Positions 4,184-56,600 of a DNA stretch of 64,000 nt are shown in pieces (position 1 is the first letter of the stretch; every line of letters begins with the position of its first letter). Below the pieces are notes generated by a model that saw only the letters and a list, made by a program, of their open reading frames with translations, ran no database searches and had not been told where the DNA came from. The position numbers were made by a program, and so were the translations under genes. The stretch is from Dipteris shenzhenensis (Eukaryota): assembly GCA_047967505.1 (NCBI GenBank), contig CM106538.1; one strand, given 5' to 3'.

Positions 4184-4505
4184 TGTTGAGAGTTGTGGTG
4201 CCATGAGTACATAGATTAAAGGCTAAGGTATGGTATAGGAAAGAATTAAAGTAGCCACGCTAGGATGTGGACTACATGATGTGGAGATGTGGATTGAGGA
4301 TATCCACAAGGAGAGATGTGGATCAGAGGATCCCACAGATGTTGACTATTCAAAGGGCACTCTCTATATAAGAGGCCCATCATGTATTATTGATATAGCA
4401 CATACTTCCTGTCTCTCTCTCCATGGCATACCGTATTTGGTTTGATCCTCCGTGATCTTTATGCTCATTAAGTGAGATTAGGCTAGTACGATCCGCACTT
4501 TGACA
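4184..4505 (+). repeat. 3' LTR of the nested element (322 bp)
   Basis: Copy of 2019-2364; preceded by the PPT and followed by the TSD. Confidence 0.93.
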
Positions 4506-7500: not shown

Positions 7501-9109
7501 GAGGTGTATTCCTGAGTCAGTGGAAGTCTTGCCATTTTTGCAAGAACGTATTAATCGCATCTTTATTACGCTCCTTTTCTTCCCCACTGAAAATTGGCGG
7601 TTTTAAGTCCTTAAGAATGTTCGAGGTTTCTCTAAGTCGAGAGGTAGCCCTCTCAACATTATTAGAAGGAATCGGTGATTTTTTAGTAATAGATACCGAT
7701 TGAGAATCGGCTATCTTAGTTATAGCTTCAGCTAGGGTTTTTAATGTTTCACTGATAACCCCTAACTATGTTTTTATATTTTGCATCCGAGTTTCAAGTT
7801 TAGTGAATTCCGCATACGGAATTTCATTATCAGCGTAATCAATATCCTCCATTTCCACATTATCCTCTTGCGTTTCAGTTTGTACCTCCTCATGTGTTTC
7901 CTCTTCAACTATTGCTTTTCCCTTTCTAGCCCTTTCCTCAGCCTCCCTAATCATACCATCCCTTTCTAGAGTGGTCATTATAGACATATATTTTCCAAAA
8001 ATTATAAAGCAAAGCGCTTTATATTAGAGAGAAAAATGTGATGCCCACTTCCCTGGTATTTGTTTAAGGCATTAGATTCATCTTGAAAGTCATCTCACTT
8101 TCTTTGATTGTTGATCTCGCCTTTGCTTTCCTTGAACTCGATCCCCAAAATCTTCTTTTAACTCCGGCCCCTTCTGCTTTCTTCAATCTCAAAGTCCTCG
8201 CTTTGATCTTCTTCTTTAAATTCAGTGAGGCTAAGAAGATTGGAGAAAAAAAATGATATGGGCCTTGGGATTTTCTTTAGAGATATACACGATGAGAGGG
8301 GTTAAAAAGAAGAAAAGTGAGGTGGCTTTTCTTCAAAGGTTGTTGAACCTTTGAATGACGTGGCTGTTTTTTTTTTCAAATCTTAGGCAATAAGAAGCAG
8401 GGACGACGAAATAGAAATCGGTGAAGGAATGTCGCGTGCAACTTTCTTCTTGTTTTGCTCTCCTTAGTATGCAAACAGATGAATAGCTTCCACTGCGCAC
8501 TTCCTTCCCTTGACTCTGACTAGTCGATTGTTTTCTGACTCCTCTGAGGCTCTGAGAGTTTGAGACTCTAATGTATTGGCACGCTGCAGCATAGCAAGGC
8601 AGCCAAGATTGACATAGTGACACTCGTGACGGATTCTTCACAACAGTACAAATGATGGATCACGGCTCCTTTCCAGCACATATAAATTCCATCGGTCATA
8701 GAACTCCAGCTTAGTCAATTCGCGGGTTTGCTACAATGCCAATTCTAGTTCGTAGAAGTTGGCAGAACTTATATAAGCAAATCTCTAGACTCTCCACCGT
8801 ATACAGGTATACTGGGCTGTGTAGATCGATAAAACAACAGCTTGTTTTATATGGGTTGCCTTGCCTTGGGGCTCAGACTCTGATTCCAACCAAAAAACGG
8901 GAACTCCAATCACCGACAATGACAAACTACCTTTCATATATATCTTTCAAGCCTTTTCTCAAATATGAATGGTCCATCACGGCCACACACGATTAAAGTT
9001 AGTAGCTTCAGTCAATCGTCGATGAAGCACCTTCCTCCTCTTGTCGTTGTTGCACATGAAAACCTCTTAAAAGCACTCCTCAATCCATTCGATTTGGCTC
9101 TGATACCAA

Positions 9110-34750: not shown

Positions 34751-35250
34751 CCTTTTGAAAATAGTACAACTAATATATTGCTCTATTAGCATAATCCAAA
34801 ATGCTTTCACATAGAGATTGCCCTAATGCAAGTAGCAAGTTTGACACATGCTTATAAATGTTGTCTCAAACTATTCAATCAAATTATGTAAGTAATTTCC
34901 AATTGCATTTAATAGTAGGGGGCAAACATTTACATCATATTAATACTAATCCTTAATACTAAAGGGGTAGAATTTCTAACTATAATGCCTCCATTTAATT
35001 ACCATGGAACACACAATACAATGTTAACTCCCAAAAAACCTTCCCTATATCTTGATCATCACATTTGGTAAATGCTTGAAAAGTTACCATGTCACACCTT
35101 GTCCAGCCCTTCATGGACCACCAAAGCCTTCATTTAGCCCCTACAAGATTGCACACCACCTAGTCTAGTCACACTAATCACCTACAAGGTTGCTCTAGCC
35201 ACAATGTGATTTATCCCTGGGGTGCCAACTCAATATATAATATGTTACTA

Positions 35251-35472
35251 CCCTCATCCAAAATCCAAGGCATGGGGGGACAAGGTCCATAAATAATATG
35301 CATGGATTTCCTTAAAAATTTTGAAATATGCAAGGGAGAAATATGAAAATTTCATGTTGCCCCTCCCACAAAATACAAGGTATATACCTTGAAAAATATG
35401 CAAGATTTTAAGATTTGTACATATTTTTCATAATATGTGAGGCCCAGGGGGGGGGGGCCTTTTGGATGAGGG
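35251..35472. mobile_element. Possible MITE
   Basis: 13-bp perfect inverted repeat CCCTCATCCAAAA / TTTTGGATGAGGG enclosing ~200 bp with repeated AAATATG; TSD not convincing. Confidence 0.35.
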
Positions 35473-37559
35473 GGGTTGAAACAAAAAATACACTAAAATA
35501 TGAAAACCCTTCTCCTTTCAAATGAATGTAACTTTTTCATGTGTTACCCAAATTTCAGCCTGCACATAGGCCAGCCACCACTACATCATCATGAGGATTG
35601 TAACAATAGGTTCCAGGCAAATTGTATAGGGGAAGCAAAATGAGGTGGAGCCGGGATGGAAGTAAGAGAAAAAGAGGAGATGTCAAGGATAAATCATCAT
35701 GGGTAACAGACGAAAAGAAAAGCTGATGGGTTTGTTAGCTGCTTTAATGCCTTGCAACACTCTCAAATTTCAGCAAATCTCAATGATCCTTGTGTTCTCA
35801 TTTGGGTGCCTATTTTCCAAGCCAAAGAACCTCTATCTTTGAGGTGGGCGTCACGGAAATGTGCTCTAATCTTCTTGGAGTACCTTTTTTTCTCCTTTCT
35901 TTTTTCTTTTGTAATTCCCTGACATGGCTTAGAGCCACATTCCATAAGTGCAGGTCCCCCAAGGAGGGCAAGCATATCTCTCTTGAGAGTGGGAGAGGGT
36001 TTACCCTCCCCTCTTGTATGGGATCCAAGGGCAACCATAGGGTCTTGCTAGAATGGCCTTGAAGGAGTATGGCAAGGGAGGGAGACATGCATACAAAGTG
36101 CAAGTGAGAGCATTGATATGTAATTTATGCAATATCATTATGGAATATAGACTCTAGAGACTTAAGTGAAAATTGGAACCTAAATGCCCAAAATTCCAAA
36201 TGCCCAAACCAATAGGCCAAAACCTAGCCTTCACGAGAGCCACTGGTGGTCGAGATCATCACTTTTTATCATTAGTAGGTTGTTTGATTGGTGGATTTAG
36301 TCCTAAAGACAACATAGTGAGGGCGGGGACACACTGACCAATGCTCGCTCACATGGGAGAAGGACATGCGCTATGTGGTTACACACCAAGTGGATAGCAG
36401 TATCACTTAATGGAAGTGATGATGGCACTTCAAGATGATGGACACCTTGGGACACTTCTTGTTGATGGGATCTTGGCTTTGTCATCCCATTTCATGCATA
36501 GGTGGGAAGGGCACTCCCCATTTTACAGAATGATTCGCGAGTGCACATGTGGTGGCTATATCAGAGCACGCCCCTTCTCTTGTGTGGGCAACATTGGTTC
36601 ATAAATACCTTGAGGTTTTAGACACCTTGGTGGAAGTGGCTCCCTACAGGGAACCCTATGGCCCATGGCTCCAATTATCCTTTCCGTTTGGATTCACACC
36701 TCCCACCACCATCTCCAAAGTTTGTGTGAAGGGATGCCATCCTACTTGGTAGATTTGTATTTGGCCCATGAAGGCCACTGACTCTATGGCCAACTCCTCC
36801 AACCCTACATGATTGGCCCATTCCATCTCCTCAAACCGCTACACCAATCACATGGTGGTGACATAAATGAGAAACCTAATGATCGCCACCATACGTAGTT
36901 GCCATCCTTCAATTCTATTTCCTCCTCCATGGGGGCGGGTGGTCTGCATTCACCCATATTGTCAATGGCAATGTTTGGTGGAAAGTAACTCTCGCATTCC
37001 ACGAGTTGGAAAGGGACGCACGATGCGATTTCTAATCGACACATGGAGAATCTGACAACACCACCATGCCACGTAATCTCCTCATCTCCACATCATCTCT
37101 CCAGTTCGCTGCCGCGTCGCTCATCTCACACTTTGCCTTGCCATCATTACGTCAGTGTGGTGTTGCAAAAAACACTAGCTCTCGTCTGCCGCCGAATTGC
37201 CATATCATCATGCACCGCATCGTTTGAACTCCGAGCCAGCCCGAGTAACTCATAGTAAAACACTACCGCTGCTAGAAAATCCCTCTCCCACCGGCCTTGG
37301 ATGGTTGGAAATGCCTATCAGGAAACTGTCGAGAAAAGTGGCTTGCAGCCTCGGAGCGGCTCGCTTGCCCCAAGAAAGGGGTCCCAAGGCAATTTGCCTC
37401 CAACCGTCAAGGGCCGAGGTTGCTGGAAGAGCGATCTCCACTATTAGATGAAGGACCCTTCCAAATCAAAAGGAAGGTAAAAAGGCATGGTAAAAACACC
37501 ACCGGAAACTCTAGCAATTCCAAACCAAGAAAATGACTCGGGATGCATTTACCCATCAA

Positions 37560-37575
37560 CACGTGCTGACACGTT
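37560..37575 (+). promoter_or_regulatory. Paired ACGT-core elements (G-box CACGTG plus GACACGTT) upstream of the Harbinger-like gene
   Basis: CACGTG at 37560-37565 and GACACGTT at 37568-37575; more ACGT cores at 37071 and 37149. Function is inferred. Confidence 0.35.
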
Positions 37576-37923
37576 GCCAAAACTCCTCACGCATTTACCA
37601 ACACCACGGCACGAGTAATTTGCAGTAATTACTATGCGACCCGCTCCCTCTGGCCCTCGACAGCCGGGAAAGGGCCTTAGTCGCCCTTTTCCGGCCTTAA
37701 GACCATGGTAAAACTCTTGTACCTCATGTGCTTGGAGTGGCCTTTAATTGTTGTTGTTCTTCTTCTTGTGTATCATGATCATCATCATCTTTTTCTTCTC
37801 TTCTTTGTCACTTCTATCATCTTCTTTTTCTTCTTCTTCTTGTTCATCTTCTTCACAGAATCAGCAGCTCTGCAAGCATCCTTTGCCACAATCCTCCTCC
37901 TCCTCCTCCTCCTCGTCCTTCCT

Positions 37924-37930
37924 TATAAAA
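37924..37930 (+). promoter_or_regulatory. Candidate TATA box
   Basis: TATAAAA about 50 bp upstream of the ATG at 37981, after CT-rich tracts. Confidence 0.45.
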
Positions 37931-37980
37931 GCGTCAAATTTACCTGTTCAAGCATCACTCTGATCTATCTCGCCATTACC

Positions 37981-39486
37981 ATGCCTTCCAAACGAGCTAA
38001 ATTTGCCCACCATAGCCCCGAGGAGACCACTGAGGAGGACGAGGATCCTCATCCTCATCCTCAGCCCGAGCCCCAACCCCAGCAACCCCCGCAGGAGCAG
38101 CAGGACGCCCCCGAGGACGAGGATGAAGAAGAGACCGAAGAGCTTGACCGCAAAAAGCAGCTCGCCACCCTCATGTGCTTCTCCTCCCTCCAGACCCTCC
38201 TCGCCATGGAGCTCTGCCGAGACACCACCCCTCCCCCCGACGAGATCTACTCCGAGGGCACTTCCTTGGTGCCCATTGCCTTCCTCAAGCTCATGCTGCT
38301 CGCCGCTACCAGCCTCATGCAGGACGAAGGCCGGCAGTGCTGGAAGCTGGAACGCCAAGGATCGGAATGGACGCGGATCGAGCGAGGGGTTGGCTCAATT
38401 GATGCTGCCACAAGAGACTGCATCTGGCGCAGGAAGTACAGTATGTCCTATGCTTGCTTCCTTTACGTCGTAGAAGAGCTCCGCCCATTCATTCAATCTG
38501 AGAGCAAGTTCTTTGTCAGGGCACCTCTTGAGGTTGAACGTGCCGTGGCCATGGTTCTCTACAGGCTTGCACATGGTCTCAGTGCTCGCGAGGTTGCAGA
38601 GAAGTACAATGTTGGAGCTTCCACTGTTGGGAAGTACACACTCATCATCGCCTCGGCACTCGCCGAGGCTAATAAGCTTTACGGTCGATACATTACAATC
38701 CCAACAGGTGATCGGATGGCTAGAATCATTTCGCAGTTTGAGCAGCTGACTAATATTTCTAACATGTGTGGCGCCATCGACGGAACCCACATCAAACTAT
38801 ACTTCAAGCCTGCAAAATGGTATACTCCCTCCGCGTATAGGAGTCCATACAAGTTTCACTCCATTCTTCTGCAAGGAGTCTGTGATGCAAACAAGCTGTT
38901 CTGGGATGTCTGCTGTATGGCTCCTGGAGGAGCTCACGATGCCTCACATTTCATGACAAGCAATCTGTATCAGAAAATAAAGGACGGGGTGTGCTTGCAG
39001 CAGCCTGTCATGACATTGGAGGGTAGAGAAGTGTCTCCTTACATGGTTGGGGACAGTGCTTATCCAATTCGGCCTTTCTGCATGAAACCCTTTGACAATG
39101 ATGATGCCCTGAGAAAGGCCTTTGATGAGCAGCTTAGGAAGGGCTTGGCCTGCATCGAGGGTGCATATGCAATCCTCAAAACCAAATGGCGAATCCTCAA
39201 ATGCATGAACGTACATTTGATGCACGCCCCTCAGATTGCAGTGGCTTGTTGCGTGCTGCATAACATCTGCCAACTTTGGGGAGAACCAGAACCTGAGCAG
39301 CGTCAAGTGGAGACGCATCATAATAATCACAGCAAAGGATCTTCTTCCGTCTATGAAGTTGATGAGACTGCAAGAGCGGCTGGGGAGGCAATTAGGGAGG
39401 CCCTTTTCAGAGATTGGGTTAAGAGGAGCCTAGACAACTCTTTTGTACCATTCGACCATGAAAGTATGTTCAGTGGTCAGAGTTAG
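37981..39486 (+). CDS. PIF/Harbinger transposase-derived nuclease-like protein (HARBI1/ALP1-like, DDE_Tnp_4), 501 aa, intronless
   Basis: Uninterrupted ORF (frame open from 37705; likely start MPSKRAKF at 37981). Acidic/PQ-rich N-terminus. Family motifs IWRRKYSMSYACFLYVVEELRP, HTH VAMVLYRLAHGLSAREVAEKYNVGASTV, GAIDGTHI, SILLQGVCD, PGGAHDA, YMVGDSAYP, IEGAYAILKTKWRIL and ACCVLHNIC. Confidence 0.92.
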   Translation: MPSKRAKFAHHSPEETTEEDEDPHPHPQPEPQPQQPPQEQQDAPEDEDEEETEELDRKKQLATLMCFSSLQTLLAMELCRDTTPPPDEIYSEGTSLVPIAFLKLMLLAATSLMQDEGRQCWKLERQGSEWTRIERGVGSIDAATRDCIWRRKYSMSYACFLYVVEELRPFIQSESKFFVRAPLEVERAVAMVLYRLAHGLSAREVAEKYNVGASTVGKYTLIIASALAEANKLYGRYITIPTGDRMARIISQFEQLTNISNMCGAIDGTHIKLYFKPAKWYTPSAYRSPYKFHSILLQGVCDANKLFWDVCCMAPGGAHDASHFMTSNLYQKIKDGVCLQQPVMTLEGREVSPYMVGDSAYPIRPFCMKPFDNDDALRKAFDEQLRKGLACIEGAYAILKTKWRILKCMNVHLMHAPQIAVACCVLHNICQLWGEPEPEQRQVETHHNNHSKGSSSVYEVDETARAAGEAIREALFRDWVKRSLDNSFVPFDHESMFSGQS

Positions 39487-40624
39487 TCCAGAGGTTTCAA
39501 TGGCACTTGTTTTCGGTGTGGGGGTAGGAAAGGTCAATTTTCATTGGACGAAATGTGTCTGGTCTGGATAGTGGAAGATTTTGAAGATGGGTCTGCCTAC
39601 CTGGCTGTTCCTCTGGGTGATGAAAATCTCTTCCCATACGGCAACGTTTATTCGAGTGATCCTTTTTAAGAAAGTGTTGGTAAAGAATTGTATACTTTAG
39701 TTACGGTATACCATTTTAGGGCTATTACAATTTCCTTTTAAAACCTCAGAGAAATTCTCTTGAAAATCTGCCAGTGCCCATGAGCAGTTGTGCTGGTACT
39801 GCTAAACTGACAAGGGGAAAAAAGTTGTAAGAAGCCAGCCTCAAGTTCTTTCTTCGTTCTAAAATAGAGTCGTCCCCTCTTTTTGTCATGTTTTCTTTTT
39901 TGGAACCACAATTTTCTATTACTGTATGTGGCAGTGCTGGTTTAATATCAGTCAGATGCAAATAAGTAATTGTAGTATCCAAATTCAGCCTGCCTCATAG
40001 TATCATCATACGATTTTTTCCTGAGTTTCTTCTCGCTCAATTTAAGATTTATGTGAGATTTGCATGTATGACATTAAATCACAACATCTTTACAGAGCTT
40101 TTTTTATAATCCTGTTAGCTGATTGTAGGTTTTCTATTTGGAAGGAACCTTGACTGTCGAATTTGCATATTAGATGCCGTAGAATTACGCCCCTAAAAGG
40201 ATATTTAAGCACAGGCTGATGACCCCTTGACACAATTAGACACAGTGCTAGGGCCTGAGCTTCACTAGTCTGAGCTCAGCTTTAAAACAAGGTACATGAC
40301 GTTGAATAGGCAGAAGCGGACTGGTCTTCTGATTGAAAGCTCGGCAATAAAGCAGGTGAAACCTTACGTGGCATTGAGTGTAAGGGCTGAAAGCACTGCT
40401 GTTCCAGCCTAGACCAACTTCAAAATGGGTATGAGGTTGAGGTGTTGATTTCCCACACTTCATCATACATAAGCACCTAGTGCTTCTTCCCTGCTTGTGA
40501 GGTATTGATAGCGGTTGAAGAGGAATCTACACGTCTGACCCCTTGGACGAAGGTCACAGCTTTGATTTTGGAACAAGTCATCTATACGAAAAACAAACAG
40601 GTTACTTCACTGGCATTTACAAGC

Positions 40625-40867
40625 TGTAATGTTCCGAAATAGCTTTACGGTATGCGTTTCCACCCTTTACTTCAGTAGCGAGACGTTTAACACACGTTTA
40701 GACCATTTTGATATGCAGTATGGGAGGATGTAGTGAGAAGCGAGTGTAATGTTCCGAAATAGCTTTACGGTAAGCGTTTCCACCCTTTACTTCAGTAGCG
40801 AGACGTTTAACACACGTTTAGACCATTTTGATATGCTGTATGGGAGGATGTAGTGAGAAGCGAGTGT
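40625..40867. repeat. 120-bp tandem duplication
   Basis: Units start at 40625 and 40745 and differ at only 2 positions. Confidence 0.95.
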
Positions 40868-41745
40868 GCAGAGTTTACAAAAAATCAGAGTTTAAGGTTG
40901 GCGCAGGATGCTTCAAAGGAGAACATTTACGTCTTCGAATCGTTTGGTGTGGCACACAATTCTGACTGAATTGATGTGTTTGAGTTCCTGGGGGTCCTAG
41001 AAAAGGCTCTCTTGCCATGATGGAAGGATGTGCCATTGCTGGAGCCTATGGGGAATGAAAAGGCCAGAGTGGCATTCGGCATCAGTATTTTGTTGACATA
41101 AAAAATCGGGCTTGTCCTTTTCCAGTTACTCTAGAAAACTTTAAATTCGGATGGACGGTGCCAGGAGCATGCGAATGTATCTCTGCATGGAACTTGCCAT
41201 GTTGAGACGAGGAAGCTGAAATGTCTTATTTTAGGCGAAGTTGGTGTGTGCATTTATTGTACAGGTCGCACTAGCTGTGGACGATGATGAAAGTGCCAGG
41301 AGCTCATGAATGTATCTCAGCAGAGAACTTGCTATGTTGTATGTGTGCATTTACAGGGTGATGAGTTTGTAAGATAGCAAGTGCAGATGAGAGGCGTTTG
41401 TGTCAGCCCTCAAAACAAGACAAAAATTATGAACTTTTCCTGTAATGTCCCACATTTTAGGCAGTAATTTTTAAAACTGGAAAAGCCAAGCTGTAGCAAG
41501 GTGGCTTGGTGGAATGTATGGTTCATTAGCTATATTCATTCACAATCAAAATAATTGGTAAAATTCTGCAAATTAATGCTAAACTTTGTTTTACGATTGA
41601 TTCAGCTTGTTGGGTTTTGTTCAAAACTATGCAATTACTTTGGTTGTTTATATGTGAGTGGGGACATCAGAGCCCACATATAGGCGTAGGTAATGCTCTT
41701 AAGGAATCCTGTGAAGCATAAATATTATCTCTCTCCCATTCCTAC

Positions 41746-41784
<39 letters not shown>

Positions 41785-43497
41785 ATTTAATTCCTGTTTT
41801 TGGGTCAATTTGTTTCTTGATTTGCTCGTTTATTTTTGCTTAGTCACCTTCTTTCTTTCTTCTTTATTTCTTGTTTTCTTTATCTCGCTCTCTTTTTTTT
41901 GGGGACATATTTTAGCAAGCATCGTGTTTGCCCAAGAGACTCTGCGGGTCTTTAGAAACCTAGATAAGTTGCTTATGCTTGGGCACTGATGACGACATAA
42001 TTGTTGCTTTGCTTGCTTAGTATGTGTTCCTTTTGTTTTTTAAAATTTTCTGGTTACCTCTTTTTTCTTCTCTTTTATATTTTGTGTAGATTTTTGGACT
42101 TTAGAACAATAAAAAATCTTAATTTGTACGATTGGATATATTCTAGTTTGGCAAAGGTGTGTTTTTCTATCACCTTAGCAGACATGCAAATTCTTTAAAT
42201 TTTCGTCCAAGTGGTGATTAGTTGTTCAACTACATCGAATTATCTTACGTGGGTGCAGAAGCCCTAGTAGTTAAAAATTCTCAAGTATTGTTGTTACTAT
42301 TATTTTTAATTTGTTTCATTTTGATTAATCTTATATTTTTATTTTTCATTGTTGCTTATTGTTTTTGTTGCTCTCAAGAGCTTTTTGTGATCCTTTTGTT
42401 TATTTCAACGTTCATTTCTCATTTCTTGTCTTTGGTATTGTTGTTCTCTTCTCTTAATTTTTATTTTATCTTCCTCTTCTCTTTCTCTTTTTTGGTGCTT
42501 TTAGGATGAAAAAGCTCTTACAGCCTTGGGGCCCTAGCTAACCCTACCTGCGACAATCGCTAGTTTGGGGGGTATATTGGCTTAGTGGTACATGCTATGA
42601 TGAATTTGCCCTTTGGAAACCAATAGGGCGATTTCCTAGGTCGTCATTTGACTCTTGTGATGTACCCTTGTAGTAGTAAGGGAGGAGTAACCTTGGGACG
42701 AGTAACGATTGTGCAAGCAAGCCTCCCCCCTTAAATACTAGTCTCACTCCTGCTAGAGTTAGGGGATATAGTAAGGGAGAAACTACCTTGGGATGGGCAA
42801 GGACATTGCAAGCAAGTTCCCCAATGTTGGATCGCCTGACCTCACCGAACAACATCGGAAAGGCTAGTGATGGTCTTGTCTCTTTGGTAGGTGATTTAGT
42901 TGGGTCTAGCTCAGTAAATCAAAACAAAAAAATTAGAAGAAACATACATAGAGAAAGGTTTGATTTGTTAGCTACGTCAAGCATGAATTAATCTTCATGA
43001 TTTTTGGGGGGGTTTGATTTTTTAGTGAGCTTTTTGTCACGAGCTTTTTATGAAAGTTAATAAAATTTGTGAGTTTTTTTGGCATCCCCCTTCTACACAT
43101 ACAAATCCCAGAGATATTTTATTGGTATATTTAATGAAATTTCAATAAACGTTGATGTAATGTTTTTTAAACATAAATCTCAATGCACCATGACCATTAC
43201 TGTCACTCTTAAGTAGTGTATAATGTTTTCAGAAAAAGATATAGATTAGCAACAAAATTCTCATTAAATTAAAATTTTCCATTTAATGAGGGTTGTTACA
43301 CCCTTAATCTAATATGAGCATGATCAAATCATCAACATATATGATATTGAAGGCTATGGATGAGCTCTCTTAATGCAATGATGTATTCAATGGACTTGAT
43401 GCCTCTAATGAAGACCTCAATGTTTCAATGAGATTATTACAAAATGGAATAAATATCTAGTCATCATCAAACAAAAACTTTGGAAGCTCTAATTTCT

Positions 43498-43822
43498 TTG
43501 AAACATATTAAAACTTTTTATATGCATAATTTGGCATTTTTGACATCTCGAATGAGCTCATAAGGCCCCAAAACCCTAAAAACGACTGTAAACATGCGTA
43601 CCTTTCGATGACATTTCAAAACCCCCTTTGGAAAAAAAGTGTACATGCAGAGTAGGCTAGAGTTTACGCTAGTGTAGGAGCCCTACAGGTGCACTTTTTT
43701 GAAAAATCATCAAAAGGTACCAATGCTTACAGTTGTTTCTAGGGTTTTTGGGCCTTATGAGCTCATACTTGGTGTTCAAAATGCCAAATTATGTGTGTGT
43801 CAAAATGTTGGATGTTTTGAAA
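43498..43822. repeat. Imperfect inverted repeat (hairpin)
   Basis: ATAATTTGGCATTTT...ATGAGCTCATAAGGCCC (43526-43568) pairs with GGGCCTTATGAGCTCAT...AAAATGCCAAATTAT (43750-43792); ~60-bp spacer. Confidence 0.8.
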
Positions 43823-44380: not shown

Positions 44381-45569
44381 ACTAAGATGTCTTAGAAACA
44401 AGCATCGTAAGACTTCTATTCCTATTAGTCCTATTCATGACACATAAGTAATTTATGGTCTATATAGTAATATCCTTAATGTAGGACAAACCTATCGAAT
44501 GGCTTTTATTCTTTTTCAAAAACATGTTAGGGAAGCTAGAAAGTCAATAGCTTGATTGAGAATTCAAAAACCCTTATATGCAAAATTTGGTTTCGAATCT
44601 TTTCGTTGCTTTCCTATCGAGCATATAGAGGGCCATTTTAATAGTGCCAAGGATTTTTACAAGGTTTCTCGACCTCATGAATTTTTTTGGATGAGAACTT
44701 TACACACTTTCTTCCCAAGAGGTTTTAATTTGGAAGGAAAATCAACTCATTGTAAGAATAAAAGAACCTCTAAAAAAAACCCTATGATGTGGAGAACTCA
44801 TATCAAGCCCTTTAACATTCCTCTTTACCAACATAGTCATATACCTACCCATGTATGGAAACCTAAAGTGATGTTAGGGGATTGTCCTAGCTCTCCTACA
44901 ATCTCACATGTTGATTATGATTTGCGTCCTTCACTTTTACTTAGAATGTCTTTAAAAAGAAGTGAACTCATCTACCAAAACTTACGTCCCTGCCTTAGTT
45001 TCTTAAAACAATTTGATCTCAAAACACCATAATTTTTGCAAATCTCTAGGGTTTGTTTGCAATCCAAGTATCCTTTTTCTTTGTGCTGCTTGAAAGTTTC
45101 ATAAAACTCCAAAAAAGCCAAGATTTGTTGGAGTTGCTTGTGAGACTATGTTGATAGATGTCTCTAGGTGGCTAAGCTACTGCTTCTTCAAAGCCATGTT
45201 GCCTAGTGTCCATGAATTTTGGAGGGACTTATTAAAGGAGGCAGATGTTCCCTCACATTCAAGTTGGATTTTAAATCACTCTGTAGGAGTGATTCCTATT
45301 GTAAAATATTTTATTCCTCTTGAAGAATTTAAGAAAAAGAGTCTCTTATTTTCCTTTAAACCAATGATTTTACTACACTTTATACAAAGATCAAGCTTGA
45401 AGATCCGAAGTTTAGAATCAAAAAGCTAATGGCTAAAGTTTTTAAGGTGAGATATGACAAAGATAAATGCAAAGTGCTAAAAGTTGAGAAAAACATATTT
45501 ATGTTTTCTCTTGGCTATATTTTCTTTTAGATAATCTTTACATCACTCCATATTTTCCGTCTATCTCTA

Positions 45570-46402
45570 TTTTTCGTCCTCCAAATTCTGTCCACCATTT
45601 CCATCACCACCACCAGCACTTTTTCTGTCAAACCCCCCTCCACCACCACTTTTTTCCTCACCCCCCCTTCCATCTCCATCTCCACCTCCCATCATCTTCC
45701 TCCCCACCCCCTCTACTTTCTCCGTCCATCCCCCATCTCCCCCATTCAAGGTAACCATCATTTTCCCCTTCACCATCTCTCTACCTCTCTCTAAACCCAT
45801 CTCCCCTTTCCCCCTCCACCTCCACCCCCCATCTCCTCCAACCCCTCCACCCCCCCATCTCCATCACCCTCCACTCTACCATCTCTCTACCTCTCTCTTC
45901 ACCCCATCTCCCCTTTTCCCCCTCCACCTCCACTTCCCATCTCCTCCACCACCCCCCATCTCCTCCACCCCCCATCTCCATCACCCTCCACTCCACCATC
46001 TCTCTACCTCTCACTATCCCCCACCCCCTCCACTCTACTATCTCTCTACCTCTCTCTATCCCCCACCTCCTCCACCCCCCATCTCCATCACCCTCCACTC
46101 CACTATCTCTCTACCTCTCTCTACACCCCATCTCCCCTTTTTCTCTTCCACCCCCCATGTCCTCCCTCCCCCATCTCCACCTCCACCCCCCATCTCCACC
46201 ATCTCTCTACATCTCTCTACACCCCATCTCACCTTTTCCTCCTCCACCCCCTCCACCTCCACCCCCCCTCCATCACCCCCTCCATTCCCCCCTCCACCCC
46301 CTTCACCCATCCCCTTCACCCCCCTCCACCCCCTCCACCCCCTCCACCCACCCCCTTCACCCCCTCCATTCCCCCCTCCACCCCCCCTCTCTCTCTCTTC
46401 TT

Positions 46403-46443
<41 letters not shown>

Positions 46444-46502
46444 CCCTCTTCTCTCTCTCTCTCTCTCTTCCCCCCTCCTCTCTTTCTCTCTCCTCTTTCC
46501 CC

Positions 46503-46560
<58 letters not shown>

Positions 46561-46640
46561 CCCCCTTCCCCTCTTCTCTCTCTCTCTCTCTCTCTCTTCA
46601 CCCCCTTTCTCTCTCTTTCCACCCCCCCTCTCCTTGCCAG
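45570..46640. repeat. Strand-asymmetric C/T-rich low-complexity/minisatellite tract
   Basis: Almost G-free on the + strand. Recurring CCCCCATCTCC, CCATCACCCTCCACTC and ATCTCTCTACCTCTC modules, then (CT)n. Confidence 0.9.
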
Positions 46641-46912
46641 CCGCTCCTTCCTAATCTATACTATGGGCCTAACACCCTTCTAAGTAAGGCTTATTAGCTA
46701 TCGCGGCGGTGCCCGCCAGCCCGGCCACCAGCCCTAGCCACCCAAGGATTATAGGCCCTCCATTAGCACTCCTCCCCCCGCCGTCCTTTCGCACCCCCCG
46801 CCTCCTGCATCTCCAAAAACCTCTCGCCCCCTCCTGTGTTTTTGAACCCCCCCACTCCATCTTTAGCCACCGCCCGCCAGCCTCCCCCCCCCCCTAAAAA
46901 AAAATGCACATT

Positions 46913-49900
46913 TTAGCGATCCTCATGAAGATGCAATTGACATTGAGGATGGCATGACAGATTCTGATAGTGATAGTGATGGCTATAAATCAAGTCAACG
47001 CGACAGGAAATCTTTGAAGAAGGGAAGCGATTCCAACAAAGATCGCACCACCGAGGACAGAGTGGAAGCCATAGCCCTAAGAGTAAAAGGTGAAACGATG
47101 CAGGCCATCGAGCAAAAGCTGTGTGTCTGTCAGCCACCACAGTACCCACGGAGAGAAAATGTTTGGTGCCCACAGTGTATAGCCAACCATACAGCCAATG
47201 AATGTCCAATCTTAAGGAACAGACTAAACCGACCAGAAGTGGCTCAGCCCCCACACTTATGGTGCCCCATTTGCAATGCTGCAGGGCATGATGTAAATAC
47301 TTGTTTCTACAATACGAGGGTAGCACAATACCAACAGCCACCGCAAATCCCAGTGTATAGACAACCGAGACTGGCACCTAATGCACAAGTGCCACGTCTC
47401 AACCCACTCCCGGTGAGAACACAAGTGCCTCAACTAATGTGAGGAATCCCAATCCTCCGTAATATCCACGGGCTCCCAATCTTGCTCCAGTAGTTCCGGT
47501 GCAACAATTCCAACTTGAAGAGCTGGAACCTCACTATGAGTATGAAACAAAATACCCTATGTACTACATGGATGGTGTCGAAGGACTCATCCTAGTGTAT
47601 GCAAATCAAGTAAGACCCACACATATCGAACACCCATCAAGTGTTTTGGTTGTGGAGAAAACCACCGCATAGCAGAATGCCCACACAAGGGTAACCCCAT
47701 TACATTCCAACCTATGTGTAGGGAATGTGGAGTTGGGCATGCTTGCATGGATTGCCCACTAAGAACAAAGCCTCAACCAACCACGGAAGTAAAACATGAT
47801 GTACCCCTGGGGATGATAAGTGTGGAAGATCACAATGTGGCAACACGAAGTGTGGCATCACAGCTAGTCTTGATCATGACAAGACAACAGAAAGAAGCGG
47901 CATGGTAAAACTCCTTTTCGATCCAAAAGCAAAGAGCCCTCTGGCAAAACAAGCCATGCCAATCCCACAAACACACTGAGACCATGCCTAGAACGTCCAC
48001 GGAAAGTGCCACCCAAGGAGCCAAGGAAGCATACCCCAATGCTGAAACTGAAAAGACATGCTACCAAGCCTTGAAGCAATGGGTTCAACAAGAACAAGAA
48101 AATTTTGAGGCAGACAGGATGGCAGCAGCAGAGATCAGAGCACCATCAAGACCCAGCATTGACACGGTGATTGATCCCAACTATTTCCAACAAGTAATAG
48201 AGAAACATGCAAAACATCCCCAATTGGATGGCACCGCACTAGCAAGCTTGATAAGTTGCCACGTCACAATGCCAATTGGGACCTTACTAAGAAATTGCCC
48301 TACAATGTGGGAGAGTTTCAAGGGATGGATTGAATCTTCACAATACTTCCCCCCACCTGAAGAAGAGGAAAAGGTAATTCAGTAAAATTTGGTGCTCGGG
48401 ATGACATTAAAAATGTAACCATCCCGCTGAAGCATAAAGCCTATGGTCAATACCCGCCAATAGTGGATGGTGGTAAACATTCTGGCAAGAGAGATATATG
48501 AAGAATGGGGCCTACCTTCAATGCAGGGGGCCACATTTAACATCTGCCTAGCTAACCACACGAAAATGAAGCCATTGGGTATCGTTGACAATGTGTCAAC
48601 AAAAATTGCTGGAGTAAGATTCACGCTCCAGTTTACTATCTTGGATCTTCCCAAGGGTGCCATAGCATACCAGATATTGTTGGGAAGACCATGGCTTCGA
48701 GAAGCGTCGGTACTCCATGGCACCAATAGGATCACTATCCAAAATAGAGAAACCACTGTCAAGGTAAATCTGGGAATAGGGGAAATCAGACCCACTATTC
48801 CTAGAAATGTTGAAGACACTTCTTCCACTATAGCCACCAGTCACATCCCCTGTACCTACCAATGCACTAAAGCCCATAGAAGGGGATACACAAAGTGACA
48901 TCAACAATTGGATACATACGGCTACAATAGACAATTGTAAATCAACACATCTAATGTTGCTAGATGTGGATGCCCAAATGATACAACTAGAAGCACCAAT
49001 TTGGGACGATGAATAAGAAGTAGTGGAAATGCTAGTCTTCATGATAGGCATCGAATGGGACAGTGACCCTGAAGAGTCCATAATAGAAGGCTACGGTGCC
49101 GACATAGAGTGGGATATGGAAACAGAAGATGATAATGCAACCTTGGAAGGCCAAGTATTTGACAATGACTTGGCAATACTATAGGCACTCATGGCCATAG
49201 AATACCCCAAGATTGACCCTCTAGCACTTTCTAATAGCAACCGCTCCAGGAAAAAGAAGGAGGGTGTACAGTGCCAAAAGGCCAAGATAGAGCATTTCAA
49301 TGAATTCGAAAGAATGTAGACCAGAGTGGTAGAATTGTACTTGACTAAGCCCACAAAAGCACCTGAGTCTCCAAATTTTAAATGGGATCCTAAAGGGCTT
49401 AAAGGTGTTTGTATGGCCGAAGAACCACTCCTTGGGAGTGCGACTCCTATTGAAAATCCATCACTAGTCTCACAAAGCAAAAAGCTTAGAAAGTTCAAAC
49501 CCAAGTAACATAAAAGAAGAACAAGGGAACACATGTGAATTGGACCAAATATCTTCTAGTGGAGCTAGCAGCCAAGCAAGCACCTCAAAGTGCCATGAAG
49601 GCCTAAGGGAAGTTCTCGATTACTTAAAAAACTACACTAGAGGAGAAGCAACAATAGCAATGCCAGGCCAGTCAGGGAATCAGAGCTCAAAGAAACAGAG
49701 AATATTGAGGATACCCCAGTTTATGAAGGACCAGCCAAGACAAGGAAACTAAATCTTGCCTTGGATGGTGAAGAAGAAAAGCCTGTGTATATCGGTGAAC
49801 AGCTCACTCTAGAAGAAGAAAAAGAATTGAAAGCATTGCTAAGGGAATATAGAGATTGCATGGCTTGGTCCTACAAAGAAATGAAAGGGATTTCCCTAGA

Positions 49901-52900
49901 AGTTGCAGTACATACCATACCAATAAGGGAAGGATCCAAAACAAAGGTATGTGGACCTTACAAGACAAATCCCAAGTATGGCACCCATGTCTATGAAGAA
50001 CTAGAAAAATTACTGGAGGCTGGTTTCATTTATGAGATCGAGCATACTGATTGGCTGTCACCAATTGTGATTGTTCTTAAGAAAAACAAGAAGCTCAGAA
50101 TATGTGTGAATCTCAAGAACATCAATGCAGCAACAATCAGAGATCATTATCCCCTACCATTGACTGAAACAAATTTAGAAAGGGTAGCGGGGTTTGATGT
50201 GTATAACTTCTTGGATAGGTTTAGCGGGTACAACCAAGTACAAATTGCACCTCAAGATCAGGCAAAGACAATGTTTGTCACAGAATGGGGCATTTTTGCA
50301 TACAGAGTCATGCCATTCGACTTATGCAATGCCCCATCTACTTTTCAAAGGGTAATGTACAACACCTTTAAAGAATCTCTCAACAAGTTCCTACAAGTCT
50401 TCCTTGACGACTTGTGCGTACACTCAGGAAAAAAGGATCACTTGAAATGCCTTGAAGAAGTGCTTAAAAAATGCAGGGAGTATGGAATCTCTTTGAATCC
50501 TCTAAAATGCCAATTCTTGGTCACACACTAAGCAGTCTTGGGACACATAGTCTCTCGACATGGGATTGCAAAAGCTGACATGGACAAAATAAAGATCATC
50601 ATGGAACTTCCCCCCTCACTAAATGCCAAGGGAATTCAAGTCTTCATGGGACATGTCGTATACTATAGAAGATTCATATTGAGGTATGCCATGATTGCAA
50701 GGCCCCTATATAAGCTCCTAGTCAACTTCATCTGGATAGACAAATGTGAACAAGCATTCAAAACCCTCAAGTGGAGATTGATCACAGTCCCAGTTCTAAT
50801 GGCACCAAATTGGGACATAGATTTTCATGTACATACTGATGGTTCCAATTATGCAGTAGGGAGTGTGTTATGTCAACTTGGCAAACACAACAAAGACTAC
50901 CCAATATACTTTGCAAAAGCAGACAGCTAAATGATGCGGAGGTGAATTACACCACAACAGAAAGAGAAGCCTTGGCAATGATCTACAACGTGAAGAAATT
51001 TTGACACTATCTATTGGCTACTGACTTTATCTTCTACACAGATCATCAAGCCTTATTATATCTTGTGAATCAGCCATGTACCACAGGCCGGATCACTCGA
51101 TGGCTTCTACTACCTACAAGAATTCAATTTCAAAATCGTTGCAAGAAAAGGAGCTCAACATTTCATTGCCGATCACATGTCATGATTGAGGACAAGAGAA
51201 GAGCTGGATGGAATAGAAGATGACCTACCAGATGTCGCATTATTTCAAACAGATGTTGTGCCTGATTGGTGTGCATACATCATTGGGTACTTAATGGTAG
51301 GAAGACCACCTCCTGAAATGAAAGCAATGGATGCTAGGAAACTAATTCTAAAATCTACACCCTATCAACTCATTGCAGGACAACTATATAAGATGGGCAA
51401 GGACTAGGTTTTAAGGAGATGTGTGATGCCACATGAGATCATGCTAATCCTCATTGAAGCACATGAAGGCATTGCAAGTGGAAAATTCCAAGGGGAAGCA
51501 ATAGCAAAAAAAGTCCTGGCAGGATACTGGTGGCCAACACTTTGGTCATATGTTTATGAATATGTCAAAAGCTGTGATGTATGCCAACAAACTTCTAAAC
51601 CACAACACAAAGACTTCAATCCCCTAACAACAGTCATTGCACATAAACCCTTTGAAAAATGGGGGATTGATTTTGTGGGTCCCATCCATCCAAGCAGCAA
51701 AAGGAACACAGGCACGCTACATCATAGTGGCCACTGATTACTTTAGTAAGTGGGCTGAAGCTAAAGCCATCAGAAAGGCAGATGCTAGGAGCACAGCAAG
51801 GTTCTTATACGAGAATGTGATCACCCAATTTGGATGTCCCATTGAAGGTCATCCAAGAACTCTTGTCTGGCTTTATGGTGATTTGTAGAAAGAGCACACC
51901 TTGCTACCCCTAAGGAAATGGACAAGCCGAATCCACCAACAAAATTCTATGTATTATCCTCACCAAGGTAGTAGAACGAAAGCGTTCTGATTGGGCAGAG
52001 AAATTAAATGCAGCCTAATGGGCATATACAAGGTTAGTACAGGAAATACACCTTTTCAATTGGTGTACCACCTTGAAGCTGTGGTCCCATTGGAATTTGT
52101 AATACCTAGTCTATGCATAGCAGTACAAGAACGTATGGGAGATCATGCATCATTGAAAGAAAGACTCTACCAATTAGAGAAGCATACAGAGACCAGATTA
52201 GTTGCCTACCATGCCATGACAATAGAAAAATGAAGAAGGAAGGCATGGTTTGATAGAAACCTCAAAGACAAAGACAAAGACATCAAGGAAGGTGACCCGG
52301 TTCTGCTGTACAATACCAAAGTCCATAAGGGCAAGCTCAAATTTCTAGGTCAAGGACCTTATAGAGTTAAAAAAATGAATCCCATCGGAGCTGTGCTGCT
52401 AGAAACACTGGATGGAGTCCAGTTCACAACAATAATAAACAGGAGCCGACTAAAGTGCTACTACATCAACATGCAAGCCATCCCTAACAATATTGAAGAT
52501 TTGGGGGTCCCAAGTCTTCCATAGTTAGGACTAGATTGTATCACGAGCACTCACTAGCATATGTATGCCTTCGCACATATAGGTAGTTTCAATCGATTTC
52601 AACCTAGGGCTCAGAGGTGATGACTAAGTCCTAGCTACCCTATGATTCCCTTAGCAAATTAAGCATATAGGAGGAATGCCCACCTCGCTAGTCATGCATA
52701 GCATACCCACACATTTCGAGCACCACGAATAAATTGCACATATGATAGCCCCAAGAGATACTTGTTTTGATCCACACACACAGCACCCTCATCACAAAAA
52801 GAGTAAAATGCATTAGCCACTCACAAAAGAAACATGCATTCTTAGCACATGGCACTATATTGGCACTGTCAAACTGGGACCTGATTCATGTGTGCAATGC

Positions 52901-53640: not shown

Positions 53641-56600
53641 ACAGTGATGGTGCCGCACTTGCCATCCTGTGCATTGCCGGAGTGGTAAGAATGGAGAAAG
53701 TCCCTAATGTACATGGTCATTATAGGACTATCCTCCAAGGATTTTAGGCTCTCATACAAACTGCCCAGACCCCTTTGCTCTAAGAAAGATGTTGTTGCAT
53801 TGGAAAGAGCATAAGCCGATGTAGGTGGCCACACAAGTTCCAATGACTGGGCCCCGTCAATGGCGGTGTAGGCTAGTGGTGACATTTGTTCTTCTTGGGT
53901 TTCCATGTCATGCCCAGAATCCTCCTCAGAGCTATCGCTTTAAACCACAAATGCCTGTGGTCATCGTAGTTGAGAGGAGACAATTGTCTGTGAACTTTAG
54001 AGGGGATCTCGTAGTTGAGGCAGTGGGCTCTTTCTACGCATCCTCTTTAGTGGCGGCATTGTTTCTGAACCTACATCCATGTGCATATGGTGTACCATTG
54101 ATCATTAGATTAGTTGGCATGTAGGTATGACATGTGTGTATGTTTGTGAGAGATCCTATTTTTACACATGCTTTGAGAGTGTGGAATGAAAGTGTGTGGC
54201 ACAATTATTCATCCAATCGACTATGTGTCTAAGTGAAAGCGTGTGAGTGCACGTGACCTAGGAGCTAGGTAGGGACTAACTATATGCTTTTTTTTTGTTG
54301 CTAGGATTTCATAGGGCAGCTAGAAATTACTTTTGAGCCCTAGGTTAAAATCGATCGATGCTACCTATATGTACGAAGATGTACATATGCAAGTGAGTGC
54401 TCGTGATACAATCTAATCCTAACAAAGGAAGACTTGGGTTTCCCGAATCTTCATTTTTGTCGGGGATGGCTTGTGTGTTGAAGTAGTAGTGCTTCAGTTG
54501 GCTCCCTTTATTGTTGTGTTGAATTGGACTCCATCCAATGTTTCTAGTAGCACAGCTCCGAATGGATTCATCTTTCTTACTCGGTAGGGTCCTTGACCTA
54601 GATACTTGAGTTTTCCCTTGTATACTTTGGCATTGTATAACAAGACCAAGTCACCTTTCTTGATGTCTTTAGCTTTAAGATTCCTATCAAACCATGCCTT
54701 TCTTCTACATTTTTCTATTGTCATGGCATTAATCTTGTCTCTATATGCTTCTCCATTGATAGAGTCTTTCTTTCAAGGATGCATGATCTCCCACGCATTC
54801 CTCTACTGCTATGCGTAGGCTTCGTATTACAAATTCTAGTGGGACCACAGCTTCAAGGCCGTAGACCAAGTTAAAAGGTGTGTTCCCTGTACTGACCTTG
54901 AGTGTCGTCCAGTATGCCCATAAGGCTGCATTCAGTTTCTCTGCTGCAATGTTGTGGTTCTACTACCTTGGTGAGGATAACACATAATATTTTGTTGGTG
55001 GATTCGGCCTATCCATTCCCTTGGGGATAGTAGGGTGTGCTTTTTCTATGGATTACCTCATAAAGCTAGACATGAGTTCTTGGATTACCTCATTGAAAAA
55101 ATGTGTGCCTCTATCTATGACACAATTTCAATGGGGCATCCGAATCAGGTGATCACATTCTTGTATAAGAATCTTGCTGTGCTTCTGGCATCTGCCTTTC
55201 TAATTGCTTTAGCTTCAGCCCATTTGGTAAGATAATCAATGGCCACAATGATGTAGCATGTATGTGTTCTCTTTGCTGCTAGATGGATGGGACCCACATA
55301 GTCAATCCCCCATTTTTCAAATGGTTTTTGTGCAAGAACTGTTGTTAGGGGATTGAAGTATTTGTGTTGGGGTTTAGTGGTCCGTTGGCATATATCACAA
55401 CCCTTGACATATTCATAGGCATGTGCCCAAATTGTTGGCCACCAATAGCCTGCAAGGAGGACTTTTCTTACTATGGCTTCCCTTTGGAAGTGTCCTCCTA
55501 CAATGCCTTCATGGACTTCACTCAGGATTGGCATGATCTCATGAGGCATTACACATCTTCTTAATGTTTGGTCCTTGCCCATCTTGTACAGTTGTCCTCC
55601 AATGAGTTGATAGGGTGCAGCTTTTAAAATTAATTTTCTGGCATCCACTGCTTTCATTTCCAGGGGGTGGTTTTCCTACCATTAAGTACCCAATGATATC
55701 TCCACACCAATCTGGAACAGCATCTATCTAAAATAGTGTGGCATCTGGCAAGTCATCTTCTACTCTAGTGGCTTCTTTTCTCGACTTGACATGAGACATA
55801 TGATTGGCAATGTAGTGTTGGGCACCTTTGCGGACCACTATTTTGAAGCTTAATTCTTGAAGCAAGAGGAGCCATCTAGTTATTCTTCTAGTTGTACGGT
55901 TCACAAGATAAAGCAATGCTTGATGGTCGGTGTAGAAGAAAAAATCATTTGCCAATAGATAGTGTCGAAATTTCTTAACACTATACACCATTGCTAGGGC
56001 TTCTCTTTCTGTGGTGGTATAGTTGATCTCGGCATCATTGAGTTGTCGACTGGAGAAGTAGAATGGGTAGTCTTTCTTATATTCACTAGGTTGACAAAGC
56101 ACACTCCCAATTGCATACTTGGATCCATCAGTATGAACATGAAAATCAATATCCCAATTGGGAGATATAAGGATGGGTGCTATGATTAGGCGCCACTTTA
56201 AAAGCTCAAAGGCTTGGTCGCACTCTTCTGTTCATAAGAATTCCACTAATAATTTGTAAAGTGGTATGGCTATCATGGCATACCACAAGATAAATATTCT
56301 ATAGTAGACAACATGTCCCATAAAGACCTGTACATCTTTGGAATTTGTAGGAGGAAGCAATTCCATGATGATTTTGATTTTGTCCATCTCAGTTGCAATT
56401 CCATGTTGAGAAACGATGTGTCCCAAAACAACTTTGTGGGTGACCATGAACTGGCATTTTGTTGGATTTAGGGAGATGCCATACTCCCTGCATTTGATTA
56501 GTACTACTTCAAGACATTTAAAGTGGTCTTTTTTGTTTGAGTGGATGGACAAATCATCCAAGAACACCTGTAAAAACTCATTCAGAAATGACTTGAAAGC

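Follow-up and report, generated by a model that had tools for sequence, protein, structure and literature searches.

The DNA analysed here is a stretch of 64,000 nucleotides (nt) from Dipteris shenzhenensis (contig CM106538.1 of assembly GCA_047967505.1), referred to as the window, and the subject of this work is an open reading frame (ORF) on its plus strand, at 37981-39486, whose product (P0001) is related to the nucleases of PIF/Harbinger transposons. The ORF contains no internal stop codon, is translated into 501 amino acids (aa) beginning with MPSKRAKF, and aligns end to end with the orthologue P0002 (100% coverage, 83% identity). It is also the longest stop-free frame of the 64-kb window, in which 11 frames reach at least 200 aa: the runner-up, with 382 aa at 45535-46683, is an artefact of a CT repeat, and the next longest, a copia gag frame at 63053-64000, continues past the end of the window, so that its intactness cannot be judged. 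An earlier note on this DNA, made from the sequence alone, had described the frame as the only undamaged long ORF in 64 kb and as an intronless gene starting with MPSKRAKF. The first statement stands, with the reservation just made for the copia frame, and the second agrees with 501 uninterrupted codons and a start that is common to the orthologues.

The reading frame is open upstream as far as 37681 and includes an earlier ATG at 37705. The added in-frame codons lie in low-complexity TCT/CTT sequence, and their translation would be a hydrophobic nonsense peptide. The start codon at 37981 is upheld because the orthologues P0002 and P0005 begin with the same MPS(A)KRAK.

P0001 is matched by the Pfam profiles DDE_Tnp_4 (65.8 bits, curated cut-off 24.8) and Plant_tran (35.2 bits, cut-off 22). 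A profile score above the cut-off, a DDE triad, and a helix-turn-helix (HTH) region followed by an RNase H-like core place the protein in the PIF/Harbinger nuclease superfamily. An AlphaFold model was built from an alignment of 26 sequences, with a mean predicted local distance difference test score (pLDDT) of 78.5 and a predicted template modelling score (pTM) of 0.72. The pLDDT is 36-52 at residues 1-50 and about 71 by residues 51-60, where the helix H50-78 starts; residues 1-49 are modelled as disordered. In the HTH region, Pfam HTH_23 and HTH_3 match residues 186-219 weakly, below their cut-offs, and residues 139-238 of the model match sigma-factor region 4 folds with Z scores of 5-5.8. 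The nuclease core is modelled with pLDDT mostly above 85, and its best fold matches are the piggyBac transposase (Z 10.2, 236 aligned residues, root-mean-square deviation 4.5), Tn5 (Z 9.0) and a Tn3-family transposase (Z 8.5). A Foldseek comparison of the model with the PDB gave nothing at E <= 0.001, and a PDB sequence profile search gave 0 matches.

Table 1. Features of the gene and of its flanks, in window coordinates (CDS, coding sequence; clade, the fern and gymnosperm clade described below; X2, one of the public runs)
Feature	Position	Strand	Basis or remark
TCT microsatellite, source of the spurious in-frame upstream ORF extension	37788..37854	+	repeat scan
TATAAAA, candidate TATA box, 57 nt upstream of ATG	37924..37930	+	sequence; unsupported as start-defining element
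Stretch colinear with one 2101-nt X2 contig; whole CDS and 386 nt past the stop	37927..39872	+	6 mismatches, no gaps, no joints
Complete CDS, 501 codons and stop (protein P0001)	37981..39486	+	stop-free translation; Pfam; end-to-end alignment with P0002
Residues 1-63, clade-specific N-terminal extension: basic patch PSKRAK, then acidic/PQ-rich disordered tail	37981..38169	+	alignment, model
Residues 64-115, conserved N-terminal helices (LMCFSSLQTLLAMELCRD; FLKLMLLAA)	38170..38325	+	fern/gymnosperm conservation; helices H50-78 and H99-112 in model
Residues ~145-238, helix-turn-helix region	38413..38694	+	weak Pfam, model fold match, near-invariant across the clade
Residues 266-428, DDE_Tnp_4 nuclease domain	38776..39264	+	Pfam match; RNase H-like core ~243-437 in model
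D267, first catalytic Asp, codon GAC	38779..38781	+	kept in 9/9 clade members
D358, second catalytic Asp, codon GAC	39052..39054	+	kept in 5/5 fern-type; K, R, R, W in 4/4 gymnosperm-type
E393, third catalytic residue, codon GAG	39157..39159	+	E in 3 ferns, D in 2 (P0004, Adiantum P0005); E in 3 gymnosperm-type, Q in 1
Residues 462-485, conserved C-terminal helix (AGEAIREALFRDWVKRSL)	39364..39435	+	kept in ferns and gymnosperms; H462-485 in model

Relatives, gene trees and selection

A word-seeded search of 5.8 billion proteins returned eight proteins with 57-86% identity to P0001. Four are of fern type, namely that of Adiantum capillus-veneris (P0005, 77%) and three further sequences (79-86%), and four are of gymnosperm type, comprising Ginkgo Gb_03989 (64%), Araucaria cunninghamii (60%) and two further sequences (57-58%). 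After these eight orthologues there is a gap, and the following matches do not exceed 46% identity; liverworts come first, followed by angiosperm proteins at 40-42%. Animal proteins named HARBI1 match at 26-33%. When 1.84 billion representatives of 50%-identity clusters were searched exhaustively with HMMER, the picture was similar, with one cluster at 577 bits and the next at no more than 383 bits among 8235 matches. Neither the word-seeded search nor the 50%-clustered library, searched by its representatives, contained an angiosperm member of the fern and gymnosperm group, and flowering plants apparently do not have it.

The angiosperm matches at 40-42% carry the names 'ALP1' or 'ALP1-like' in the databases. 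When one of them, the 'ALP1'-named protein P0038 from Lotus, was used as query, it was found to belong to a tightly conserved angiosperm family with one member annotated 'like AT3G19120'. The database name is therefore not evidence of orthology, because such matches sit in the AT3G19120 family, which is listed apart from at3g63270. The ESM Atlas returned generic 'DDE Tnp4 / ALP1-like' clusters only and was uninformative on orthology.

Three trees were inferred: a FastTree tree of 179 rows, in which sequences of at least 300 aa were kept, and quick (65 rows) and careful (40 rows) IQ-TREE trees with hand-picked clade representatives. P0001 and its orthologues form a nine-row clade supported at 100* by FastTree, 100* by the quick IQ-TREE and 100/100* by the careful one. 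Within this clade, from here on the window clade, the ferns on one side and the gymnosperms on the other are each other's sister group, the terminal branches are short (0.03-0.15), and the gene tree matches the species tree. Judged by these sequences, the clade predates the fern/seed-plant split. The earlier note had suggested a lineage-specific domestication, a proposal that does not survive, as the clade is common to ferns and gymnosperms and is older than their separation.

The sampling of the AT3G19120 clade was extended by a profile search seeded with its basal members, which added Ginkgo Gb_19400, Cryptomeria SUGI_0807160 and Amborella. This clade (100/100*) begins with liverworts, followed by P0034/P0351, then by Ginkgo Gb_19400 with Cryptomeria, and then by Amborella with the other angiosperms. 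It and the window clade are both supported at 100/100* and are mutually exclusive; Ginkgo has one gene in each of them (Gb_19400 and Gb_03989, respectively), and the two clades are therefore paralogous. An approximately unbiased (AU) test of a tree in which the window clade is nested among the vascular members of the AT3G19120 clade rejected this position (lnL difference 107, p 3.8e-45), the tested group having been named after the tree was seen.

The clades resemble each other in several respects. The AT3G19120 clade supplies the nearest angiosperm relatives, its proteins have the N-terminal helix, the HTH and the DDE_Tnp_4 domain in the same order, and it is old and vertically inherited, with members from liverworts to angiosperms in species order. 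On the other hand, its proteins start directly at the MDxSF/L helix, without a basic/acidic extension, and in the rosid and basal-eudicot members checked the third triad residue has been lost (DDV in Vitis, Nelumbo, Camelina and Lotus; DDG in Hibiscus), although tomato and Thalictrum keep DDE; in the window clade it is the second residue that has been lost, in gymnosperms. Two long-branch members of the AT3G19120 clade, P0216 and P0222, have lost the first catalytic Asp, with triads ADD and IDE; different positions of the triad have therefore decayed independently in different parts of the family.

Elsewhere in the trees, HARBI1-named animal proteins fall in the distant half. The group P0011-P0032 (source JGI) consists of 17 sequences in three starred sub-clades, whose joint node has a support of 89 in FastTree and lies in the deep polytomy of the careful IQ-TREE. 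The DDE triad is intact in 15 of the 17, and these proteins could represent Harbinger transposases active in non-vascular plants.

All nine members of the window clade have the N-terminal extension: 31-257 aa, with a short patch of K/R and a D+E content of 26-59%, lie ahead of the first conserved helix. Of 46 relatives checked, by contrast, 42 have at most 7 aa ahead of the same helix, and 19 of 20 AT3G19120-clade proteins checked are equally short and thus have no acidic extension. The comparison shows the clade's basic and acidic module to be a derived trait. P0001 has both elements named by the earlier note, the basic patch at the N-terminus and the acidic/PQ-rich extension.

Concerning selection, a metagenome scan gave 216 pattern matches and one confirmed locus, a conifer-like contig of 2096 nt (L001). 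It encodes a protein 99% identical to the gymnosperm-type P0008, which confirms the sequence of P0008 independently. Between the window CDS and L001, a single fern-gymnosperm pair, dN is 0.30-0.32 and dS is saturated (undefined with NG86 and YN00, 1.9 with LWL85). Over 422 aligned core codons the differences by codon position number 126, 82 and 259. Among the CDS differences listed for near-identical contigs, a partial list with 81 further rows, 12 are distinct, of which 10 are at third positions and 9 are synonymous. Strong purifying selection on the coding sequence is indicated by these comparisons.

Surroundings of the gene and public contigs

The gene is surrounded by decayed retroelements. 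Of 41 other frames of at least 110 aa in the window, 17 match Pfam at E <= 0.001, all with Ty3/gypsy or copia domains and all in short broken frames. No hAT domain was found in these 41 frames or in 70 frames of at least 55 aa between about 30.9 and 45.8 kb. The graveyard of transposable elements described in the earlier note is therefore real as regards broken Ty3/gypsy and copia frames; its hAT frames were not recovered in the frames scanned.

The marks of an autonomous PIF/Harbinger element, that is, terminal inverted repeats (TIRs) with a TTA/TAA duplication and a linked Myb/SANT ORF (ORF1), are missing from this locus. None of the 41 frames in the window and none of the 70 frames in the inner interval has a Myb/SANT domain, although a partner made of small exons could escape such a scan, and no Myb/SANT ORF lies within about 7 kb of the gene. 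Among 21 short inverted pairs in the 11 kb between 33 and 44 kb, none is credible as TIRs. Just one of them brackets the gene, at 37451-37471 / 40131-40151 (21 nt, 81%); it has ATG and GAC at its flanks instead of TTA/TAA, is no better than the 20 other chance-level pairs and was rejected. The earlier note had reported neither a flanking TIR/TAA-TTA pair nor a Myb/SANT partner ORF, and the 21 pairs and 111 frames lead to the same result. By tblastn the window contains one copy of the gene and no second one. The gene has the Pfam family, the fold and the triad of the autonomous PIF/Pong/Harbinger transposases in common with them; it differs from them in the missing TIRs, duplication and ORF1, in its one copy in the window and in the added N-terminal module.

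The broken Ty3/gypsy (one with a chromodomain) and copia elements are located at 829-7516 (-), 20525-23480 (-), 47546-50930 (+), 55145-56849 (-) and 63053-64000 (+); the last of them, the copia gag frame that runs on to the end of the window, could come from a younger element. A CT/CCA-rich simple-sequence tract with strong negative GC skew occupies 45535-46700, contains about 120 CT units at 46387-46616 and gives rise to three fake 'proline-rich' frames that overlap each other and measure 299-382 aa. An inverted repeat at 43525-43621 / 43697-43793, with arms of 97 nt that are 85% complementary and a spacer of 75 nt, resembles a miniature inverted-repeat transposable element or a hairpin. A tandem duplication (unit of 120 bp, 2 copies, 98% identical) is present at 40625-40867, about 750 bp downstream of the ends of the gene-matching contigs.

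Contigs of four public runs were placed on positions 35000-42000. That their libraries are RNA is a guess, there was no DNA run to contrast them with, and no RNA-labelled sequencing runs with the gene were listed. The whole CDS is carried by contigs of two runs, from two studies. Besides the X2 contig of Table 1, run X1 has two contigs, at 37927-38409 and 38469-39847, and a contig of X4 matches with about 3% mismatches (49 over 38113-39623), all of its listed indels lying past the stop codon. The 3' ends of the contigs differ (39847 in X1, 39872 in X2). Outside 37927-39872, most of 35.7-41.7 kb is hardly covered by X1, X2 and X4, or not at all, which would fit contigs derived from transcripts; it is not counted here as evidence.

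Related to this is the candidate TATA box of the earlier note. The motif TATAAAA exists where it had been seen; its role in defining the start of transcription is unsupported. The X1 and X2 contigs have 41 and 155 extra letters, respectively, before position 37927, at which their alignments begin because the aligner broke off at a masked repeat. If they continue the match upstream, the matched sequence runs through the TATA motif instead of starting behind it. Another X2 contig matches from 37573 on, and its 255 preceding letters are found nowhere in 35000-42000; they could be an upstream exon of the 5' untranslated region or a repeat junction. At 35215-35557 and 41786-42000, very deep contigs match in part with about 89-95% identity (a 2223-nt X1 contig with a depth of 734; depths of up to 2092 in X4 at the right edge). 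Abundant repeat or gene families are their probable source.

A host gene and its catalytic site

That the gene is a domesticated host gene of a distinct clade is a conclusion held with high confidence. The fuller statement, almost as firm, is that it is in all likelihood an immobile host gene derived from the nuclease (ORF2) part of a PIF/Harbinger transposon, inherited vertically since before the fern/seed-plant split as a clade of its own. The earlier note had likewise taken it for a host gene, and the orthologues, the species-like tree, the purifying selection, the missing TIRs, target-site duplication (TSD) and Myb ORF, and the clade-specific N-terminal module all speak for this and against a transposon copy. 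Orthologues in distant taxa with a species-like tree, and purifying selection on the CDS, are among the criteria that Liang 2015 and Duan 2017 apply to domesticated transposase genes, next to expression and a syntenic, immobile locus in single copy.

Several points weigh against this interpretation or narrow it. The deep nodes of the careful tree form a polytomy that comprises the window clade, a liverwort-containing group, the DDE-intact clades and the AT3G19120 clade. The window clade may therefore stem either from a domestication of its own or from the duplication of an already domesticated gene, and it may be older than the common ancestor of ferns and seed plants. The liverwort group (Riccia fluitans and Calypogeia, 44-47% identity) may or may not be orthologous to it. 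The labels 'fern' and 'gymnosperm' follow from the position in the tree, except for Adiantum, Ginkgo and Araucaria, which are named. The absence from angiosperms relies on the word-seeded search and on representatives of the 50%-identity clusters. The copy count refers to the 64-kb window, and a single genomic copy, synteny and immobility would be claims beyond it; the runs that contain the gene are RNA by guess, so that its expression is no more than possible. Besides, P0001 retains D267, D320, D358 and E393 together with 35 of the 47 positions that are at least 80% conserved in 75 DDE-intact representatives. With all its catalytic residues present, a catalytic role in ferns is possible, and the fern protein may cut DNA as well.

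The catalytic site separates ferns from gymnosperms. The triads of the four gymnosperm-type proteins are DKE, DRE, DRE and DWQ, that of Ginkgo being DKE; DDE is found at the triad columns in 100 of 151 aligned representatives. The stretch with H319 and D320 (the G..HD motif) is deleted in the gymnosperm-type orthologues, whereas the fern-type proteins keep it; these two residues are 80% and 99% conserved, respectively, in the 75 DDE-intact representatives. In the whole clade, the basic positions R289, K290 and R389, conserved in the family, have been replaced. As the gymnosperm proteins have neither D358 nor G..HD and are nevertheless 57-64% identical to the fern protein, the selected function is unlikely to be DNA cleavage, and the role conserved across the clade is probably non-catalytic.

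For this role a nuclear adaptor mechanism may be proposed, although tentatively and with rather less than even confidence, since it is drawn by analogy with ALP1, HDP1 and HARBI1. The basic patch PSKRAK, a candidate nuclear localisation signal, would bring the protein into the nucleus. The conserved N-terminal helices (50-115), of which residues 64-115 are a candidate docking site for a Myb-like partner, would hold an unlinked Myb/SANT-like protein, as in the pairs ALP1-ALP2, HDP1-HDP2 and HARBI1-NAIF1. The HTH, a dead or dispensable nuclease core and the acidic tail would then tie the pair to chromatin or to a histone-modifying complex, and the acidic tail could offer histones, or some other basic partner, a novel surface. 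The role of chromatin regulator put forward in the earlier note is thus an analogy, not a result.

This analogy comes from a small number of systems, considered here from the available text of the papers. Domesticated Harbinger nucleases pair with a Myb-derived protein inside chromatin complexes, ALP1/ALP2 in PRC2 (Polycomb repressive complex 2) and HDP1/HDP2 in the IDM1 acetyltransferase complex (Velanis 2020; Duan 2017), and in Harbinger, HDP1 and HARBI1 the interaction with the partner maps to the nuclease's N-terminus (Velanis 2020). ALP1, whose rice homologue is PANDA and which forms a PRC2 accessory module with ALP2, is the model for the proposed adaptor. According to the descriptions available, ALP1/PANDA is also a domesticated nuclease without TIRs or an adjoining Myb gene, old in land plants and with the triad reportedly kept outside angiosperms; it differs from the present gene in not being the nearest clade by search and in an angiosperm 5' intron that this CDS does not have. 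HDP1 of the Arabidopsis IDM1 complex, compared by description too, is equally nuclease-derived, binds a Myb-derived partner through its N-terminus, has no TIR/TSD and does not keep the triad in full, which is counted as a likeness; it differs in being described as an angiosperm clade separate from at3g19120 (Duan 2017). HARBI1/NAIF1 of vertebrates, as far as described in the same sources, is a domesticated nuclease with its catalytic residues kept and a Myb-like partner. It differs as an independent animal domestication from the distant half of the tree.

Alternatives and significance

Two alternatives place the catalytic residues of the fern protein at the centre. A domestication 'in two states', with an active DDE nuclease in ferns (for a programmed cut or for PIF/Tourist mobilisation in trans), a structural chromatin adaptor in gymnosperms and loss of the lineage by flowering plants, is unlikely. 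Slightly less probable still is the view that the fern protein is a host-retained active DDE nuclease or transposase that mobilises non-autonomous PIF/Tourist-type elements in trans or makes a programmed DNA cut, with a scaffold role in gymnosperms only. The triad and the G..HD motif kept in the five fern-type sequences (with E replaced by D in two), the core modelled with high confidence as a transposase fold and the repeat-rich genome agree with such an activity. On the other hand, the replacement of R289, K290 and R389 is clade-wide, and the conservation pattern is the same as in the gymnosperm proteins, which cannot be catalytic. There are no TIRs and there is no Myb partner gene nearby, which according to the available text of Velanis 2020 Harbinger transposition needs, and DDE-intact ALP1 homologues outside angiosperms are regarded as domesticated in the accessible part of Liang 2015.

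It seems quite improbable that the gene is a fern orthologue of ALP1/PANDA (AT3G63270 clade) that works as an ALP2-bound PRC2 accessory subunit. This possibility is suggested by the ALP1 homologues with DDE kept outside angiosperms that Liang 2015 describes in ferns and gymnosperms, by the ALP2 orthologues in a fern and a conifer (Velanis 2020), by the DDE of P0001 and by the database names of some related proteins. However, the six separate angiosperm clades of Harbinger-derived genes in the consulted text of Duan 2017 are HDP1, at3g63270 (= ALP1), at3g55350, at4g29780, at5g12010 and at3g19120, and the nearest 'ALP1'-named matches of P0001 belong to the last of them. The gymnosperm homologues of Liang 2015, Ginkgo included, reportedly keep DDE, and the Ginkgo protein of the window clade is DKE; the 5' intron stated there for the angiosperm ALP1 and At3g55350 clades is absent from this uninterrupted CDS; and no representative with the DGA triad of ALP1 occurs among the best 150 of the 8235 HMMER matches. 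The separation from ALP1/HDP1 that the earlier note considered possible is likely, though indirectly supported: the closest angiosperm relatives are without exception of the AT3G19120 clade, and Duan 2017 treats this clade as distinct from those two, the trees themselves containing no ALP1, PANDA or HDP1 sequence.

The remaining alternatives are very improbable. The AT3G19120 clade, listed among the uncharacterised Harbinger-derived genes in the available text of Velanis 2020, gives the best angiosperm matches of P0001 (40-42% identity) and has the N-terminal helix motif and the domain order in common with it, but a fern member of this clade is opposed by the mutual exclusion at 100/100*, the AU test, the Ginkgo gene in each clade, the members that the AT3G19120 clade already has between liverworts and gymnosperms (P0034, P0351) and the missing acidic extension in 19 of 20 of its proteins. 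The idea that chance has left the frame intact in a transposon copy, whether young or lucky, or in a pseudogene can be dismissed with the same assurance: the gene sits among decayed transposons and, with a guessed library type, its expression is no more than possible, but its 57-64% identity to gymnosperm proteins with an excess of differences at third codon positions, the species-like gene tree and the lack of TIRs, TSD and Myb ORF do not fit with it.

A literature search gave no description of a Harbinger-derived clade that joins ferns and gymnosperms without angiosperms, although members may already appear under another label in the trees that Liang 2015 and Duan 2017 show in figures or supplements. 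The ADF-1L paper (PMC11893794, EMBO Rep 2025), as far as its accessible text goes, concerns a fish MADF protein and is irrelevant to this gene.

What is known of the repeated domestication of Harbinger transposases into the chromatin machinery, with ALP1/ALP2, HDP1/HDP2 and HARBI1/NAIF1, comes almost entirely from angiosperms and animals, and a domesticated host gene in ferns and gymnosperms would add a further old domesticate to them. Arabidopsis and rice cannot reveal this clade because flowering plants appear to lack it. The practical consequence for the annotation of fern genomes is that the masking of DNA transposons should spare this ORF. The fern orthologues, in which the catalytic site is kept, and the gymnosperm orthologues, in which it is lost, constitute a natural contrast for what selection preserves in a domesticated nuclease.

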